A DNA stretch of 64,000 bases, taken from assembly GCA_013336225.1 (NCBI GenBank), contig JAAXUC010000001.1, positions 35,949 to 99,948 of the forward strand, read 5' to 3'. This document shows, one piece after another, positions 440 to 59,677 of this stretch (position 1 is its first letter; every line of letters starts with the position of its first letter). The notes beneath the pieces are model-generated. The model made no database searches. It saw only the letters and a program-made list of their open reading frames with translations, and was not told where the DNA came from. Both the position numbers and the translations under genes were made by a program. Origin of the DNA: Candidatus Moraniibacteriota bacterium. GTDB lineage: Bacteria; Patescibacteriota; Minisyncoccia; Moranbacterales; GWC2-37-73.

Positions 440-587
440 GATTACGAATTGTAATTTCGAAGTATGAATTTTGAATTTCGAATGAAATCTTAATGATTTA
501 ATGTTTCAAACATTGGAAATTCAAAATTAAAAATTTATTCAAAATTCAAAATTCAAAATTAAAAATTCCCCTGAAACTCTGCGAGTC
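440..587. repeat. Palindromic intergenic heptamer-arm element, copy R1. Left arm is GAATTTY repeats, then a central AATGTTTCAAACATT hairpin, then a right arm of AAAATTC repeats.
   Basis: Seen directly in the sequence. The element is an imperfect long palindrome and is homologous to the copies at 1077-1229, 11764-11883 and 48124-48281. Confidence 0.6.
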
Positions 588-11763: not shown

Positions 11764-11883
11764 TGTAATAAAAAATTTCGAATTTCCAATTTTGAATTTT
11801 GAATCAAATCTGAATGAATTAATGTTTAAAAATTTGAAACATTAGAAATTCATTCAAAATTCAAAATTCAAAATTTAAAATTA
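11764..11883. repeat. Palindromic intergenic heptamer-arm element, copy R3
   Basis: Arms of AATTTCGAATTTCCAATTTTGAATTTTGAA, a central AATGTTTAAAAATTTGAAACATT hairpin, and arms of AAATTCATTCAAAATTCAAAATTCAAAATT. Confidence 0.6.
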
Positions 11884-18156: not shown

Positions 18157-19584
18157 ATGAATAAAAAAACAAAAATAGTAGCAACTTTGGGCTTGGTTTC
18201 AGACAGTAAAGAAGTTTTGAAACAAATGATTGAAAATGGCATGAATGTGGCGCGCCTGAATTTTTCTCACGGCTCCCATGAATGGCATGGCAACATCATC
18301 AAAACTGTCAGGGAGTTGTCCAGTGAAATGGGAATTTCTGTGGGAATATTGGGCGATCTGCAAGGACCGCGCATCAGAACCTTGGTGGATGAGCCAGTGG
18401 AAATGAAAAATGGCGAAACAATTTTGTTTAGTGATGTGACTTACAAAGAAAATGTAATTTCTTCAGAATTAAAGTCCATCATTCTGGATGTTCCAAGTAT
18501 TGTCGATGACATTGAGATTGGCAATGAGATTTTAATCGAAGATGGTTTGATGAAAGTCGTGGTGAAAGAAAAAGAAAATGGAGTTTTGACCACTGAGGTT
18601 ATGGATGGGGGAATTGTCAAAAATCATAAAGGGGTGAATATTCCTGATGCAAAATTGAAAATCAGCCCAATCACTGAAAAAGATGAAAAAGATTTGAAAT
18701 TTCTTTTAGGCATGGATGTTGATTTCATCGCAATGTCTTTTGTGAGCAGTGGAAAAAATATTGAAGATTTGCGCGACATGATGAAAAAAATTCTTGGGCG
18801 CGAGGACAATCTTCCTCAGATTATTGCCAAGATAGAACGCAAGGAAGCTATCAAAAATTTGGATGACATTCTGCAGCACACTGACGCCGTGATGGTGGCG
18901 CGCGGAGACTTGGGAATCGAAATTGAAGGCACAAAAGTTGCGGTGCTGCAAAAAGAAATTGTGAAAAAAAGTTTGCAAGCCATGAAGCCGGTGATCGTGG
19001 CCACGCAAATGCTTGAATCCATGATTGTGAATCCACGCCCAACTCGCGCGGAAGTTTCTGATGTGACTAATGCAGTGGTTGATCATGCTGATGCCGTGAT
19101 GCTTTCCGGTGAAAGCGCTTCTGGAAAATATCCAGTGGAAAGTGTGCGCACCATGAAAGAGATCATTGAGAACACTGAGGCCTCACCATTTGATGATGTG
19201 AAGCATATACTTACGCTTAATGGAGAAGAAGATTTCAAAATGGTCATCAAGAGTGCTTATGAACTGGCTAAAAACAGCAATGCAAAAGCAGTGGTGCTTG
19301 GATCAGCCAGTGGTTTCACAGCGCGTTTGTTTTCTCATTTTCGTCCAGAGCAACCAATGTTGGTGGTGACGCATAATAAAAAAACATATCAGCAACTTGC
19401 CTTGGTTTGGGGCATTGAAGCTAAGTTATATGAAAGAGGTGAAGTTTTCCGTGAAGATATTGATTGGCTTATTGAAGATGCCAAGAAACAAAACATCATT
19501 GCAAAAGGTGATAAGGTTATTCTGATTTTGGGCAGAACTCCAGACGGAGAGCATATCAGGTTGATTGGAATCAAAGAAGTGTAA
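18157..19584 (+). CDS. pyk: Pyruvate kinase
   Basis: KIVATLG, ARLNFSHGSHEWH and the MVARGDLGIEI motif are all diagnostic. Length is 475 aa. Confidence 0.9.
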   Translation: MNKKTKIVATLGLVSDSKEVLKQMIENGMNVARLNFSHGSHEWHGNIIKTVRELSSEMGISVGILGDLQGPRIRTLVDEPVEMKNGETILFSDVTYKENVISSELKSIILDVPSIVDDIEIGNEILIEDGLMKVVVKEKENGVLTTEVMDGGIVKNHKGVNIPDAKLKISPITEKDEKDLKFLLGMDVDFIAMSFVSSGKNIEDLRDMMKKILGREDNLPQIIAKIERKEAIKNLDDILQHTDAVMVARGDLGIEIEGTKVAVLQKEIVKKSLQAMKPVIVATQMLESMIVNPRPTRAEVSDVTNAVVDHADAVMLSGESASGKYPVESVRTMKEIIENTEASPFDDVKHILTLNGEEDFKMVIKSAYELAKNSNAKAVVLGSASGFTARLFSHFRPEQPMLVVTHNKKTYQQLALVWGIEAKLYERGEVFREDIDWLIEDAKKQNIIAKGDKVILILGRTPDGEHIRLIGIKEV

Positions 19585-19661
19585 GGCAGCTTTTTAGGCT
19601 TTAGCTTATCAACTTCTTAGGAAATACAAAATATAAAATTAACATGACTATGTCATGTTCT

Positions 19662-19730
19662 GGAGGGGTCGCAGTGTGGGCCGAATGCGAAGAACATGAG
19701 CATTCGGCGGGTTTCAAAAGAAACCCTGGC
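19662..19730 (+). other. tRNA-Ser-like 5' fragment (acceptor 5' strand GGAGGGG plus D-arm-like region), followed by a GAGCATTC-containing hairpin
   Basis: GGAGGGGTCGCAGTGTGGGCCGA parallels the 5' end of the intact tRNA-Ser (GGAGAGGTCGCATAGTGGTCGAG). It is preceded by the palindrome AACATGACTATGTCATGTT at 19641-19659. Confidence 0.4.
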
Positions 19731-19823
19731 AAAAATTCAAAACATTTTTTTGCTTGAGGCTTTGCCGAGTTTTAAATGATTTGAATTTTTGAGTGCACCT
19801 TCATTGTTAATTAGTTTCAAAGC

Positions 19824-19910
19824 GGAGAGGTCGCATAGTGGTCGAGTGCACCACCTTGGAAAGGTGGCATACTGTCAAAGGTATCGGAGGTTCGAATCCT
19901 CTCCTCTCCG
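19824..19910 (+). tRNA. tRNA-Ser (anticodon GGA), long variable arm, no encoded CCA
   Basis: Manual fold: acceptor GGAGAGG/CCTCTCC, D-arm GCAT..GTGC, anticodon stem CCACC/GGTGG with loop TTGGAAA, variable arm CATACTGTCAAAGGTATC, and T-loop TTCGAAT. Confidence 0.85.
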
Positions 19911-19923
19911 CTTTGAAACTAAA

Positions 19924-20103
19924 AAGGTGGCATACTTTAAACGGTATCGGAGGCTGTAAATTATAAAGAGCAAATGATTTTGCTAATTATAATTTACAGC
20001 GCCAGAGCAATTTTTCGTCAGCAGACAAAAATGCGAGGCGGTGGCCAGACAAATTTTTGTGGCGACAAAAATTTAGTCGAGACCGAATCCTCTCCCCTCC
20101 GCC
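19924..20103 (+). pseudogene. tRNA-Ser 3' fragment spanning anticodon-loop 3' side, variable arm, T-arm and acceptor. It is interrupted in the T-loop by an insert of about 130 nt, and its acceptor strand CCCCTCC is complementary to the 5' fragment at 19662.
   Basis: AAAGGTGGCATACTTTAAACGGTATCGGAGG matches the intact tRNA at 28 of 31 positions. After the insert, the sequence resumes with GACCGAATCCTCTCCCCTCCGCC. Confidence 0.5.
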
Positions 20104-20120
20104 TTTAAAATTAAAAAATT

Positions 20121-20516
20121 ATGGATACATATAATTGGTATTCTCAATTGATAAAACCAACTTGGGCTCCACCTGCTTTTCTTTTTGGACCAGTTTGGAC
20201 AGTGCTATATATCTTAATTGCGATTTCATTTGGCAAAGTTTTTTGGATGACTTGGCAAAAGAAAATTGCATTTTCAGTGGCGCTTCCATTTTTGCTAAAC
20301 TTGTTTTTCAATTTTGCATTCACGCCAATTCAATTTGGACTCCAGAACAATCTGCTCGCTTCAATTGATATTCTCTTGGTGCTGGCAACTTTGATTTGGG
20401 CAATGATCGCAATTCATGTTCATTCCCGCTGGGTTGCCTATTTGCAAATCCCGTATTTAATTTGGGTTTCATTTGCAACAATTCTGCAACTAACCATCAC
20501 TTTTTTGAATAGATAA
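20121..20516 (+). CDS. tspO: TspO/MBR family tryptophan-rich sensory protein
   Basis: LIKPTWAPPAFLFGPVWTVLY is the TspO signature, followed by further TM helices. At 131 aa it is slightly short. Confidence 0.75.
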   Translation: MDTYNWYSQLIKPTWAPPAFLFGPVWTVLYILIAISFGKVFWMTWQKKIAFSVALPFLLNLFFNFAFTPIQFGLQNNLLASIDILLVLATLIWAMIAIHVHSRWVAYLQIPYLIWVSFATILQLTITFLNR

Positions 20517-20520
20517 AAAT

Positions 20521-20859
20521 ATGAGAGTTTGGGATATTGATCCAAAGAAATTGTGTCAGAAGCATTTAGTTGCTGAGCATCGAGAGTTGCATGGACTTTG
20601 GAATATTTTAACTAAGCATGGTGGCAAGGGTGGATATTCAAAACATCCAGAGACTTTGCGTTGGGTTGGAAAAAATCGAGCACTTTTTGAAAGGCATGAG
20701 ACATTGATAAGAGAATTTGTGATAAGAGGATATAAGCATCACACTCCATTAGACAAGAAACTCGCTACTGGTAAAAAAGTACAAGATTTTTTCATCAATA
20801 CCCAGGAGGAGCAGGAAATGCTGCTTAAAAACAAGGATTGCAAATGCCTGCTCGATTAA
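20521..20859 (+). CDS. Pyrimidine dimer DNA glycosylase (T4 endonuclease V/DenV-like), short form
   Basis: MRVWDIDPKKLCQKHLVAEHRELHGLW aligns with the T4 DenV N-terminus ([28 protein letters not shown]). Confidence 0.6.
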   Translation: MRVWDIDPKKLCQKHLVAEHRELHGLWNILTKHGGKGGYSKHPETLRWVGKNRALFERHETLIREFVIRGYKHHTPLDKKLATGKKVQDFFINTQEEQEMLLKNKDCKCLLD

Positions 20860-35829: not shown

Positions 35830-35989
35830 AGGATGTGGGTTATGCAGGATTTCTGCTCGCTCCGACTCGCAGCCTGGGTGCTACGCACAGAATGCTCGTA
35901 TTCCTCGCATCCTACTCGCACCCTTCGAATCTTTGCATATTTTAAATATTTTTTAAAAACTCTAAAAATAAAGAATTTTTAAAAAAATG
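35830..35989 (-). repeat. tRNA-Lys-associated mini-element. A GC-rich core of about 90 nt with a GAGCATTC box is bounded on one side by the intact tRNA-Lys 3' end and on the other by a 19-nt direct repeat of it (ATGTGGGTTATGCAGGATT on the + strand).
   Basis: The 19-nt identity between 35833-35851 and 35988-36006 was read directly. The arrangement is the attL/attR-like signature of insertion at a tRNA 3' end. Confidence 0.55.
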
Positions 35990-36062
35990 TGGGTTATGCA
36001 GGATTCGAACCTGCGACCGTCGGCTTAAGAGGCCGCTGCTCTACCAACTGAGCTAATAACCC
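35990..36062 (-). tRNA. tRNA-Lys (anticodon CTT)
   Basis: Reverse complement GGGTTATTAGCTCAGTTGGTAGAGCAGCGGCCTCTTAAGCCGACGGTCGCAGGTTCGAATCCTGCATAACCCA. It closely parallels canonical bacterial tRNA-Lys. Confidence 0.85.
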
Positions 36063-41995: not shown

Positions 41996-43228
41996 TTACT
42001 TCATTTTCAAATTTGCATGCGGTTGCATGGTTTTCCAAGCAGAAATTGATTTTTTTCTTTGCGCGTCTGACATTTTGTTCCAGCGAAAAGCAGCGGCAGC
42101 TGCAATCATGGCAGCATTGTCACCAGTCAAGGATAAGGCTGGGATAATATATGAAACTTCGGACAGATTTTTTTTAATAGCTTCGCCAAGTTGCGCGCGC
42201 AATTCTTTATTGGCACTGACGCCACCAGCCAGCAAAATTGTTTTTGGTTGGTGGGCTTCAGCTGCTTTGATGGTTTTTGCGACAAGCACATCCACAGTTG
42301 CTTGTTGAAATTCATGGCAGATTTCTGTAAGATATTTCTTATCTTTTAAAAGTTCTGGATGTTTTTTGGTTTCATATAGTACCGCAGTCTTGAGTCCGGA
42401 AAAAGAAAAATCATAATTTTTTTTGTTGAGCATTGGGCGTGGAAATTGTATTCCATATTTCGTATCTTGCATCCTATATGAGCCGTTTTGATTTCTGGTT
42501 TTTTCTTTTTGACATTTGTCATTTGGATCTTGAAATTTCTCAGCCATAGCTGAGACGACAGGTCCGCCCGGATAGCCAATTCCTAAAATGCGAGCGACTT
42601 TGTCAAAAGCCTCGCCAACTGCATCGTCCAAGGTTTGTCCGATGATTTCATATTGCAGATGATCTTTCATGAGAACGAGTTGGGTGTGACCACCAGACAC
42701 CACCAAGCATAAAATTGGGAATTTTATGCTTGGTGAATTTTGAATTTTGAATTTTGAATTTTGAACGATGGAAGATTCTTTTTTATTTGTAATTTCTGTA
42801 TTTCGAATTTGTTTGGAATTTAGAATTTGAGATTTAGGATTTACGCTAATGAAATTGGCGTAAATGTGCCCCTCAATATGATGAATTCCCAAAAGTGGCT
42901 TTTCCCAGAGATAGGAGAGGGTTTTGGCATAGCTAACCCCCACTAGCAGCGCTGGGATGAGCCCTGGGCCTTGAGTCACTGCAATGACATCAATGTGCTC
43001 TGGCGAAACTCCGGCCTCTCTCAGGGCAAAATCAAGCAAATGGTCGATATTTTTCACGTGCTCACGAGCGGCCAAGTTTGGCACAACTCCACCCCATTTG
43101 GCATGCAGTTTTATTTGCGAAGAAACCTCGCTGGCTAAAATTGCAAGTCCTTGAGCCGATGATTTCAAAATTGAAATTGCGGTGTCGTCGCAAGAAGTTT
43201 CAATGGAAAGTATTAGATTATTTGACAT
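41996..43228 (-). CDS. tsaD: tRNA N6-adenosine threonylcarbamoyltransferase TsaD (Kae1/Gcp family), carrying heptamer-repeat-derived in-frame insertions
   Basis: Conserved TsaD blocks are present (SIETSCDDTAISIL, GIHHIEGHI, VVSGGHTQL, GEAFDKVARILGIGYPGGP). An insertion of about 40 aa encoded by TTCAAAA/GAATTTT tandem repeats lies at 42733-42840, and a second QDTKYGIQ repeat-derived segment lies near 42405-42480. Confidence 0.85.
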   Translation of the reverse strand: MSNNLILSIETSCDDTAISILKSSAQGLAILASEVSSQIKLHAKWGGVVPNLAAREHVKNIDHLLDFALREAGVSPEHIDVIAVTQGPGLIPALLVGVSYAKTLSYLWEKPLLGIHHIEGHIYANFISVNPKSQILNSKQIRNTEITNKKESSIVQNSKFKIQNSPSIKFPILCLVVSGGHTQLVLMKDHLQYEIIGQTLDDAVGEAFDKVARILGIGYPGGPVVSAMAEKFQDPNDKCQKEKTRNQNGSYRMQDTKYGIQFPRPMLNKKNYDFSFSGLKTAVLYETKKHPELLKDKKYLTEICHEFQQATVDVLVAKTIKAAEAHQPKTILLAGGVSANKELRAQLGEAIKKNLSEVSYIIPALSLTGDNAAMIAAAAAFRWNKMSDAQRKKSISAWKTMQPHANLKMK

Positions 43229-45076: not shown

Positions 45077-45185
45077 TTGCGTGCTCCTTTTTAGCTTAAA
45101 ATAGCTGCTGATTTGAATTGTTAAACAACGTGAAATATTAGCATACTTTGCCTAATTAGTCAATGTTTTTATAGAGTGTGGCGCC

Positions 45186-45371
45186 AAGGAGAATTTGCGC
45201 GTCGTTTTCTGCTAAAAACTCCTTGTCCGCGGCAGCGCTAAATGCTCGCTCGCTCTCATTTATCGGCGTTCGATTATTCGCCTTCGCTCATATCTCACTG
45301 CTGCCGAGTCCGATTCTCATGGCGCTAGACAAATTTAAAAGCCATCATTACTGATGACTTTTAAAAATTTG
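45186..45371 (+). repeat. tRNA-associated GC-rich element B, MITE-like. Its terminal inverted repeats are copies of the tRNA-Glu T-arm/acceptor 3' end, the core carries AAATGCTC and CGGCGTTCG boxes, and a short hairpin follows. It abuts tRNA-Glu.
   Basis: The left end TGGCGCCAAGGAGAAT and the right end GAGTCCGATTCTCATGGCGCTA (reverse complement TAGCGCCATGAGAATCGGACTC) both mimic the tRNA-Glu 3' end (GGAGTCCGATTCTCCTTGGCGCTA). The core 45230-45330 aligns with element A 35390-35500 and with 52085-52142. Confidence 0.55.
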
Positions 45372-45443
45372 TAGCGCCAAGGAGAATCGGACTCCTGTTA
45401 CCAGGATGAAAACCTGGTGTCCTAACCACTAGACGATGGCGCC
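45372..45443 (-). tRNA. tRNA-Glu (anticodon TTC)
   Basis: Reverse complement GGCGCCATCGTCTAGTGGTTAGGACACCAGGTTTTCATCCTGGTAACAGGAGTCCGATTCTCCTTGGCGCTA. It parallels canonical tRNA-Glu. Confidence 0.85.
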
Positions 45444-51959: not shown

Positions 51960-52031
51960 GCGGGTGTCGTATAGTGGCTATTATATCAGCCTTCCAAGCT
52001 GAGGAGGGGAGTTCGATTCTCCCTACCCGCT
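51960..52031 (+). tRNA. tRNA-Gly (anticodon TCC)
   Basis: GCGGGTG...TCAGC-CTTCCAA-GCTGA-GGAG-GGGAG-TTCGATT-CTCCC-TACCCGC-T; it parallels canonical tRNA-Gly. Confidence 0.85.
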
Positions 52032-52043
52032 CAAAATGATGAA

Positions 52044-52084: not shown

Positions 52085-52142
52085 GGGTAGGGAGAATCGA
52101 ACTCGGCAGCAGTTAGATATGCGTGAAGGCGAATAATCGAGC
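52085..52142 (-). repeat. Partial copy (3' portion, about 58 nt) of the tRNA-associated element, ending in an inverted mimic of the tRNA-Gly T-arm/acceptor
   Basis: The reverse complement GCTCGATTATTCGCCTTCACGCATATCTAACTGCTGCCGAGTTCGATTCTCCCTACCC aligns almost base-for-base with element B, CGATTATTCGCCTTCGCTCATATCTCACTGCTGCCGAGTCCGATTCTC... Confidence 0.55.
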
Positions 52143-59495: not shown

Positions 59496-59677
59496 GCGCT
59501 TAACTATTTTCCTTTTTGGCACGCTTTTGGATGAAATGCTCAATATCCAAAAGCTCCGATTCAGGAAAGGGGTCGGGAAAACCTGGGTTTTCCCGTGGCG
59601 GAATTATTCAAACCGAGGGGTTTGAAGGAGTGCGAAGCACGACGCATTGGGCCAAAAAGAAAAATAGTTTCGCTTAA
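59496..59677. repeat. MITE-like GC-rich element (family G) with terminal inverted repeats of about 26 nt, in the nrdA-nrdB spacer
   Basis: The left end GCGCTTAACTATTTTCCTTTTTGGCACGC is matched by the reverse complement of the right end, AGCGAAACTATTTTTCTTTTTGGCCC. The interior has GAAATGCTCAATATCC and GCTCCGATTC boxes shared with the tRNA-associated elements. Confidence 0.6.

Follow-up and report, generated by a model that had tools for sequence, protein, structure and literature searches.

This report concerns a transfer RNA gene locus in a 64 kb stretch of DNA (the window; 39.6% GC) from a metagenome-assembled genome of Candidatus Moranbacteria, a group of small groundwater bacteria within the Candidate Phyla Radiation (CPR, Patescibacteria). 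The pyruvate kinase encoded in the window is 100% identical to a protein listed by NCBI under this name. Downstream of its gene, pyk (18157-19584), a spacer of 536 nt that extends to a TspO gene (20121-20516) holds one working tRNA-Ser(GGA) gene nested inside the remains of another. The ancestral gene, here termed type A, was interrupted in three of its loops and functionally replaced by a copy in its anticodon loop. Decoding falls to the nested gene, since no tRNA can be made from the outer copy any more. This layout is inherited, and the substitution pattern indicates that several of its helices are maintained at the RNA level. The locus is a tRNA-gene relic with a nested replacement and conserved structured inserts. 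On balance it is probable that a working tRNA-Ser(GGA) lies within the wreck of an older type-A copy, that a common precursor with retained helices would be formed, and that the inserts would stem from a family of GC-rich modules.

Architecture of the nested locus

The only tRNA called in the spacer, by both ARAGORN and Rfam, is tRNA-Ser(GGA) at 19824-19910/11. A preliminary description made from the sequence of the window had recognized this intact gene. Its acceptor stem is GGAGAGG/CCTCTCC, and CCA is not encoded. Flanking arms form a 13-bp stalk that prolongs the acceptor stem, giving a perfect 20-nt inverted repeat (19811-19830/19903-19922) and a stem of 20 bp. The short spacer before the stalk has homologues in two relatives (TCATTGTTAATTAG, TCATTATTAATTGG and TCATTATAATCAG in the window, L085 and L091, respectively). 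For the segment 19655-20110 (456 nt) the folding energy is -181.7 kcal/mol, whereas shuffled sequences give -120.5 +/- 5.3 (z = -11.5).

The second, outer tRNA-Ser(GGA) spans 19662-20101 as four collinear pieces split by three inserts (table 1), all composed of long hairpins. The first insert (ins1) enters the D loop after G19; the block with the intact gene (19800-19922) enters the anticodon loop at about position 35/36; the third (ins3) enters the T loop between positions 53 and 54. Piece 1 contains the acceptor 5' strand GGAGGGG, positions 8-9, the 5' strand of the D stem and the start of the D loop through G18 G19. Piece 2, a fragment that, like ins1, had gone unnoticed in the preliminary description, supplies the end of the D loop, the 3' strand of the D stem, position 26 and the first bases of the anticodon stem; in the alignment fold the outer D stem pairs across ins1. 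About 7 nt that would follow it are missing from the window, namely ACC TTGG, which covers part of the stem of the anticodon arm and two anticodon bases, the first and the second. Piece 3 comprises A36 of the anticodon loop, the 3' strand of the anticodon stem, the variable arm and the T-stem 5' strand GGAGG; its variable-arm allele, CATACTTTAAACGGTATC, is that of the functional gene in L085, L198 and L206. Piece 4 consists of a mutated T-loop remainder (CCGAAT), the T-stem 3' strand CCTCT, the acceptor strand CCCCTCC and the discriminator G. GGAGGGG (19662-19668) and CCCCTCC are perfectly complementary. The repeated tandem unit measures 63 nt with its trailer, and the gap from the gene to the 3' copy is only 12 nt. 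One relative, L093, retains CTTGG from the outer anticodon loop ahead of the insertion; in the window the 3' half begins AAAGG. The pair is consistent with insertion at 35/36, the A run leaving the exact point ambiguous.

Every sequence statement of the preliminary description was recovered with a repeat finder: the 5' fragment, the 3' copy identical at 28 of 31 positions, the T-loop interruption of about 130 nt and the complementarity of GGAGGGG to CCCCTCC. Its proposal that a single former tRNA-Ser gene left the flanking fragments as its matched halves is borne out by intact orthologues in L087, L207, L198 and L206. The description had also offered a decaying second isoacceptor as an alternative. 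A decaying second gene comes close to what is found; the isoacceptor, however, is the same (GGA), as the CTTGG of L093 indicates. The outer copy has the properties of a relic or pseudogene: its similarity to a tRNA is partial and collinear, it is not callable, and intact orthologues exist in L087 and L207.

The outer copy as a tRNA

The preliminary description had further considered a split or intron-containing tRNA. The outer gene would then be a functional tRNA-Ser after removal of three introns, with the inner tRNA released from the middle one, either as an archaeal-type multi-intron or split tRNA or with a group I intron at 35/36. The outer acceptor stem does covary, and the insertion sites in the D loop, at 35/36 and at 53/54 resemble non-canonical archaeal intron sites. 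When the four outer pieces were joined in eight junction variants, however, ARAGORN called no gene in any of them, and a tRNA was called only once ACCTTGG was restored; a spliced outer tRNA was rejected on this ground. The outer T loop is mutated in the window. The outer anticodon arm is truncated to differing extents in L083, L085, L091 and L120, and the outer 3' part of L091 is badly decayed. Position 35/36 is the reported site of group I introns in Patescibacteria tRNA genes (PMC13011429); no group I or group II intron core (including RF00028) was detected at the gathering threshold in the window or at E <= 10 in 19500-20250. At the gathering threshold in the window, and at E <= 10 in the locus, Rfam families other than tRNA appeared solely as spurious matches caused by the tRNA. 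The middle 'intron' is, moreover, essentially just the tRNA. Given the failed joining, the varying truncation and the lack of an intron core, a working multi-intron or split tRNA is rejected as very improbable.

The locus in related genomes

Relatives were collected as contigs with pyk homologues at 81-92% identity, with one further match from a DNA pattern scan, and yielded 12 distinct spacer versions. A gapped ins1 pattern scan of metagenomes returned 101 stretches, of which local BLAST kept L120, L132, L139 and L143 as real; the others were AT-rich chance matches. The synteny pyk-tRNA-(TspO)-dnaG is conserved, with pyk, TspO, Pyr_excise and dnaG as neighbours.

The comparison with related genomes suggested in the preliminary description reveals a simple gene of the outer type at the site. 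In L087 and L207 a single gene stands between pyk and dnaG, with the acceptor stem GGAGGGG/CCCCTCC; intact genes with this acceptor are also present at the site in L198 and L206. In L202 a simple gene is accompanied by a 19-nt repeat of the gene's 3' end. The nested layout of the window, with homologous spacers and stalk, recurs without ins3 in L083, L085 and L093. In L091 and L120 the outer 5' piece, ins1, spacer and stalk are those of the window, and the nested gene is a type B tRNA-Ser(GGA), GGAGAGATGGCCGAGTGG. Because layout, spacers and junctions are homologous in these five relatives, the arrangement is inherited. Other arrangements occur. L089 has a type B gene followed by a type-A 3' half carrying ins3. 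In L206 a rearranged ins3 and a fragment of the 3' end follow an intact type-A gene. The order in L198 is an intact type-A gene, a type-B copy truncated at its 5' end and bearing ins1, and a type-A 3' half. The type-B relic of L198 carries ins1 at the same D-loop nucleotide as the type-A relics (GAGTGG, ins1, TTGAAGG). One intact tRNA-Ser(GGA) is always kept; which copy this is differs by lineage.

Type A (GGAG[G/A]GGTCGCATAGTGGTCGAG...) and type B (GGAGAGATGGCCGAGTGGTTGAAGG...) are quite different tRNA-Ser(GGA) sequences that alternate as the working gene at this one site between close relatives. Type B works in L089, L091 and L120, and type A in the window, L083, L085, L093, L087, L198, L202, L206 and L207. 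Working genes of both types have the same stalk and trailer.

Repeated tRNA sequence might have made a metagenome assembler interleave two tRNA-Ser loci. Two contigs of an independent assembly (Logan) overlap inside the inner gene, and their breaks within the inner tRNA, with an overlap of 30 nt only, would suit such an artefact; both are nevertheless 100% identical to the window on either side. Relatives assembled independently from other samples and with other pipelines (NCBI, ENA and JGI) show an equivalent architecture in identical nested order; four separate assemblies of the L198 variant are among these. Because these sources agree, a chimera is exceedingly unlikely. The Logan contigs (L001 and L002 of SRR11449212, from the same population) break exactly inside the inner tRNA-Ser (window 19846-19875), which suggests a graph branch arising from strain variants or a shared tRNA k-mer.

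Structured inserts

ins1 is a three-hairpin element (P1-P3). In an alignment of seven copies, 13 of its 38 pairs show compensatory double changes, and several G.U pairs are acceptable on the tRNA (+) strand only. P2 occurs as GGGTTTC/GAAACCC, GGGTCAC/GTGACCC and GGGTTGC/GCAACCC; P1 is found with four pair types. Between the window and its relatives ins1 is 82-92% identical, compared with 42-52% (saturated) at four-fold degenerate sites of pyk, and its identity matrix roughly parallels that of pyk. High identity combined with this parallel points to vertical descent under constraint, and recent lateral spread is disfavoured. Conservation above the neutral level together with compensatory changes, in a small sample, marks ins1 as a structured RNA. 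It is absent from L087, L089, L202, L206 and L207.

The preliminary description had assigned a GAGCATTC box at the 5' fragment to a family of GC-rich elements. This holds only in part: the box lies in P1 of ins1, with a P1 homologue at 35891-35910(-); three other GAATGCTC matches fall apparently inside long open reading frames (ORFs) and look like chance. The invariant base of P3 is the heptamer AAAATTC, which also forms short tandem runs in AT-rich intergenic DNA of the window (541-558, 11856-11873 and 42738-42762).

ins3 lies between the 5' strand of the T stem and the T loop. It occupies the identical junction in L089 (GGAGG, ins3, TTCGAAT), is rearranged in L206 and is absent from L083, L085 and L093; it is thus missing in the closest relative, L083, and present in the distant L089 and L206. 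Nine pairs of its hairpin H1 are kept through changes on both sides. Its core has an identity of about 93% across the window, L089 and L206, an estimate read from alignment A4 rather than printed by a tool.

Long-range pairing

The long-range helices, namely the outer acceptor stem and the stalk, were examined in six nested loci against 500 shuffles. Together they are paired in 96.7% of cells, five pairs having changed on both sides; the covariation score is 0.303 versus 0.202, and none of the 500 shuffles reaches the observed value. The stalk alone is 98.7% paired over the six loci; two of its pairs have changed on both sides, and L120 has G.U replacements. Its variants include TTAG/CTAA versus TCAG/CTGA and TTTCAAAGC/GCTTTGAAA versus TTTTAAAGC/GCTTTAAAA. 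The outer acceptor helix alone is 92.9% paired over the six loci, with three pairs changed on both sides: GGAGGGG/CCCCTCC in the window is GGAGAGA/TTTCTCC in L085 and GGAAGCG/CGCTTCC in L120, the last including a G-C to C-G swap. This pattern is good evidence, though not proof, that the outer helices are kept by selection.

The integration-scar reading

Duplication from within a tRNA anticodon loop had been read in the preliminary description as the footprint of attB/attP exchange by a tyrosine integrase. On such a reading, integrase elements repeatedly entered the anticodon and T loops, displaced the 3' part and were later deleted, leaving duplicated 3' fragments and short GC-rich arm remnants. 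Displaced 3' copies in direct orientation indeed begin in the anticodon loop (A36, 19923-19953) or the T loop (20083-20101), and these loops are classical integrase sublocations (Islander description, PMC4383910). Other tRNAs of the window have their 3' ends repeated over 17 nt, exactly or nearly so, 138-193 nt downstream, and short repeats of the GCGAG type in GC-rich elements could, by inspection, be arm-type binding sites. No integrase, recombinase family or foreign gene was found among the 12 related loci, however, and synteny is conserved. Scans of viral contigs for the ins3 core, ins1, P1 and the core of the tRNA-Glu and tRNA-Gly elements described below gave nothing relevant, only chance matches in coding DNA. 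The 12-nt gap and a 63-nt tandem unit that includes the trailer are not what such exchange would leave. The D-loop insert, the nested intact gene and the 5' fragments are not predicted by it either: pieces at 19662-19679 and 19791-19799 are present, and it was therefore not the 3' part alone that was duplicated. The layout is, in addition, stable across lineages whose silent sites are saturated, with compensation at the RNA level. Integration scars are accordingly a quite unlikely origin. On this comparative evidence the locus is best described as an inherited structured RNA locus, not a mobile-element scar.

Related modules at other tRNA loci

Insert modules recur at four other tRNA loci of the window, those of tRNA-Lys, tRNA-Glu, tRNA-Gly and tRNA-Arg(TCG). 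Each module has two to three copies in the 64 kb, against 0-0.65 expected from shuffled sequence; as whole units, ins1 and ins3 are single-copy in the window. P1 of ins1 in L091 and L198 (GGATGCGAGGAATACGAGCATTC) is identical at 23 of 23 positions to window 35890-35912(-), part of an element linked to tRNA-Lys. The R1 covariance model of ins1 scores this element at 21.2 bits, whereas 715 kb of unrelated control DNA gives 15.1 bits at best. The element lies in a T-loop-like context of a 3' fragment of tRNA-Lys (GATTCGAA, element, AATCC). Behind tRNA-Glu, tRNA-Gly and tRNA-Arg(TCG) there follows in each case a terminator-like hairpin, recognized by eye, and then an inverted copy of the gene's own T arm and acceptor end, joined to GC-rich sequence that is mutually homologous among the three. 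The sequence after the tRNA-Gly copy, GGCAGCAGTTAGATATGCGTGAAGGCGAATAATCGA, is homologous to the tRNA-Glu element. tRNA-Arg(TCG) has two inverted copies, both placed after terminator-like hairpins (by eye); the first joins a 94-nt GC-rich element, a homologue of the tRNA-Glu element that shares ...CGAACGCCGAYAAATG...GAGCATTT...CAAGGAG with it. A scattered family of modular GC-rich hairpins, located within or next to fragments of tRNA genes elsewhere in this genome, is the probable source of the inserts.

The hairpin loop of ins3, GTCAGCAGAC, recurs at 29398-29414, flanked by CTCGCTCG and CGCTCGCT. The surrounding stretch (29276-29484) is a GC-rich intergenic patch, with up to 70% GC in 40 nt, in which ARAGORN calls no tRNA. 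Another GC-rich, hairpin-rich intergenic patch lies at 59540-59650 (GGGGTCGGGAAAACCTGGGTTTTCCCGTGGCGG...).

Such recurrence also fits a view of ins1 and ins3 as selfish RNA-structured insertion elements, akin to introns or intervening sequences, that home to particular tRNA-loop nucleotides. Their conservation would then serve their own propagation, and the nested layout would be what survives when the elements kill one copy. The insertion points are precise: ins1 follows GG19, exactly the same D-loop nucleotide, in the type-A relics and in the type-B relic of L198; ins3 shares its T-loop junction in the window and L089 and is not in the closest relative, L083; and both targets read GG^T(T)CGA. 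Both elements are patchy in presence yet highly conserved, and CPR genomes are rich in insertions in rRNA and tRNA genes (PMC11270868, PMC13011429). What speaks for a different history is that each whole element is single-copy in the window, that the divergence of ins1 tracks pyk with no sign of recent lateral spread, and that no intact host gene with ins1 or ins3 was found, which gives no indication of splicing or tolerated excision. Rfam detected no ribozyme or intron core in them, and no associated protein was found. Such an origin appears unlikely.

A joint reading, which we hold only tentatively, would treat ins1, ins3 and the related modules as an undescribed class of small RNA-structured insertion elements at defined nucleotides in D, anticodon and T loops of Moranbacteria tRNAs, with no known intron core or encoded protein. 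ins1 would have moved between the D loops of two paralogous tRNA-Ser genes, to the same nucleotide in each. The host would cope by retaining an intact gene inside or alongside the invaded copy; the two together would form a single scaffolded precursor whose relic helices are selected.

A model for expression

The reading preferred here, of a working gene within an older wreck, can be cast as a sequence of steps. (i) The old promoter and the leader hairpin at 19641-19659 would still drive one compact, multi-helix precursor of about 440 nt. L083 has a homologue of this hairpin ahead of its type-A 5' end, as does L198 ahead of its intact type-A gene. (ii) RNase P and a 3' endonuclease would release the tRNA from the precursor. 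Since no CCA is encoded, an endonucleolytic 3' cut and CCA addition are needed. (iii) The relic helices (outer acceptor, D stem and stalk) would pair the pseudo-halves with each other and so prevent mispairing with the real tRNA. The outer halves may be kept complementary because either strand, GGAGGGG or CCCCTCC, could compete with the real acceptor stem if it were left unpaired. (iv) ins1 may have a further RNA-level role of its own, because its conservation extends to L198, in which the working gene lies upstream of it.

A promoter-like pair, recognized by eye, may precede the inner gene: a -35 box, TTGAAT, in the 3' arm of P3 and a -10-like box in the spacer, 17 nt apart. The latter is a perfect TATAAT in L091, likewise by eye; a promoter consensus scan flagged none in the spacer. 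A promoter alone does not explain P3, whose stem is just as invariant in L198, although no gene starts behind it there.

Several points weigh against this reading. The outer acceptor helix is mismatched once in L083 and decayed in L091. The outer 3' half of L083 is identical to the inner one, and gene conversion could mimic constraint. The covariation comes from only six to seven related sequences, and kin sequences can exceed shuffles without any structure. The internal promoter, if used, would leave the stalk leader arm untranscribed. The single precursor, its processing sites and the role of ins1 are inferred from sequence features. ins1 and ins3 are each missing in several relatives and are therefore dispensable, and selfish elements fit this as well as a host function does. 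Patchy presence, fixed insertion nucleotides and the shift of ins1 between the D loops of the two gene types are compatible with an origin as selfish elements with homing-like behaviour.

Comparison with known systems

Displaced tRNA-gene fragments and pseudogenes beside an intact tRNA gene have been catalogued for genomic islands (Islander, PMC4383910; PMC9897764). The present locus resembles these in its partial copies beside an intact gene, in a 3' copy that starts from the anticodon loop and in being invisible to tRNA finders. It differs in having a 5' fragment and an intact gene between matched halves, and in having no island or integrase; its fragments carry conserved structured inserts, and their pairing is maintained. 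A simpler arrangement is that of the E. coli tyrT-type tRNA-linked repeats, in which the last 19 nt or so of the tRNA are repeated about 150-180 nt downstream. Unlike those simple tandem units, the repeats here enclose distinct structured elements, and one gene is nested.

With archaeal multi-intron tRNAs the locus shares interruptions in all three loops at similar positions, with long helices at the junctions; it is bacterial, however, its exons give no canonical tRNA, and the middle insert is itself a tRNA. The group I tRNA introns of Patescibacteria (PMC13011429) come from the same phylum and lie at an unusual anticodon-loop position that the nested insertion probably shares. In contrast to them, no catalytic core was found here, the insert is a tRNA gene on a 13-bp stalk, and the host gene cannot be restored.

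RNase III-excised intervening sequences are present in the rRNA of other bacteria. Intervening sequences and insertions occur likewise in rRNA genes of the CPR (PMC11270868). Like them, the inserts are extended stem-loops at loop positions of a structural RNA gene, patchy among relatives; unlike them, their host is a non-functional copy of a tRNA gene, and they are 113-130 nt long and contain no ORF. Dispersed GC-rich palindromic modules are familiar from AT-rich genomes, as in the GC clusters of yeast mitochondria and REP/BOX-type elements. The GC-rich modular hairpins that recur in the intergenic DNA of this genome are similar in kind. They differ in their low copy number, their tight tie to tRNA-gene fragments, their positional conservation across relatives and a pattern of compensation that speaks for structured RNA rather than structured DNA. 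The literature searched contained no description of nested tRNA genes or of ins1- or ins3-type elements.

Among the relatives, intermediates survive that illustrate the replacement of an essential tRNA gene from within in a streamlined bacterium. Fragments of a structural-RNA gene that is itself dead may remain under selection because they are co-transcribed with a live one. ins1 (113 nt, three hairpins) is a candidate new structured RNA, and the GC-rich modules are a candidate tRNA-associated family in the CPR, where insertions in rRNA and tRNA genes are already known to be unusually common. The locus also offers a bacterial case of interruptions at the three loop positions of archaeal multi-intron tRNAs, which bears on the origins of split and intron-containing tRNAs. 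Such loci are traps for tRNA annotation and for island finders that read any displaced tRNA fragment as an attachment (att) site.

Table 1. Features of the nested tRNA-Ser locus and of module-bearing tRNA loci, in window coordinates.
Feature	Position	Strand	Remarks
Leader hairpin, AACATGACTATGTCATGTT	19641-19659	+	Just 5' of outer piece 1; original upstream sequence of the old type-A gene
Outer piece 1, GGAGGGGTCGCAGTGTGG	19662-19679	+	15/18 identical to the first 18 nt of the inner gene (repeat finder)
ins1, 113 nt	19680-19792	+	Covariance model R1, 135.8 bits; only full copy in the window
ins1 hairpin P1	19680-19708	+	
ins1 hairpin P2	19709-19726	+	
ins1 hairpin P3	19728-19791	+	
Outer piece 2, GAGTGCACC	19791-19799	+	Exact 9-nt repeat of 19844-19852 (repeat finder)
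Spacer	19800-19810	+	From outer anticodon-arm remnant to stalk; homologous spacers in L085 and L091
Stalk leader arm, TTAGTTTCAAAGC	19811-19823	+	Prolongs the inner acceptor stem; 13-bp stalk
Functional tRNA-Ser(GGA), type A body	19824-19910	+	ARAGORN; Rfam RF00005, 56.2 bits
Stalk trailer arm, GCTTTGAAACTAA	19910-19922	+	Repeat finder, covariation test
Outer piece 3	19923-19953	+	28/31 identical to 19860-19890; begins 12 nt past the gene
ins3, about 130 nt	19954-20082	+	Between T-stem 5' strand and T loop
ins3 hairpin H1	19954-19999	+	
ins3 core	20000-20082	+	
Outer piece 4	20083-20101	+	Repeat finder 20084-20116 versus 19893-19925, 85%; 15 nt extend into the 3' trailer
tRNA-Arg(TCG) inverted partial 3'-end copies	35482-35500, 35285-35302	-	Downstream of tRNA-Arg(TCG) 35545-35619
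tRNA-Lys 3'-end repeat, exact, 17 nt	35835-35851	-	Downstream of tRNA-Lys 35989-36062
GC-rich element, 71 nt	35853-35923	-	Contains the P1-identical 23 nt; precedes the 17-nt repeat
tRNA-Glu 3'-end direct copy, 17 nt	45178-45194	-	With the inverted copy forms a long stem closing the element
GC-rich element at tRNA-Glu, 87 nt	45219-45305	-	Follows the inverted copy
tRNA-Glu inverted T arm and acceptor copy	45306-45325	-	Downstream of tRNA-Glu 45371-45443
tRNA-Gly inverted T arm/acceptor copy, exact, 20 nt, then GGCAGCAGTTAGATATGCGTGAAGGCGAATAATCGA	52085-52142	+	Downstream of tRNA-Gly 51960-52032

Neighbouring genes

The genes for TspO and Pyr_excise (pyrimidine-dimer glycosylase family; window 20121-20859) stand between the tRNA-Ser locus and a conserved dnaG leader, as they do in L202. 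Their insertion by an integrase-type event was considered and rejected: no tRNA fragment bounds the cassette, which simply precedes the conserved dnaG leader. The whole block is missing from L085, L087, L089, L091, L093, L198, L206 and L207. In L083, TspO is followed by an ORF of 48 amino acids (no Pfam match) in place of Pyr_excise.

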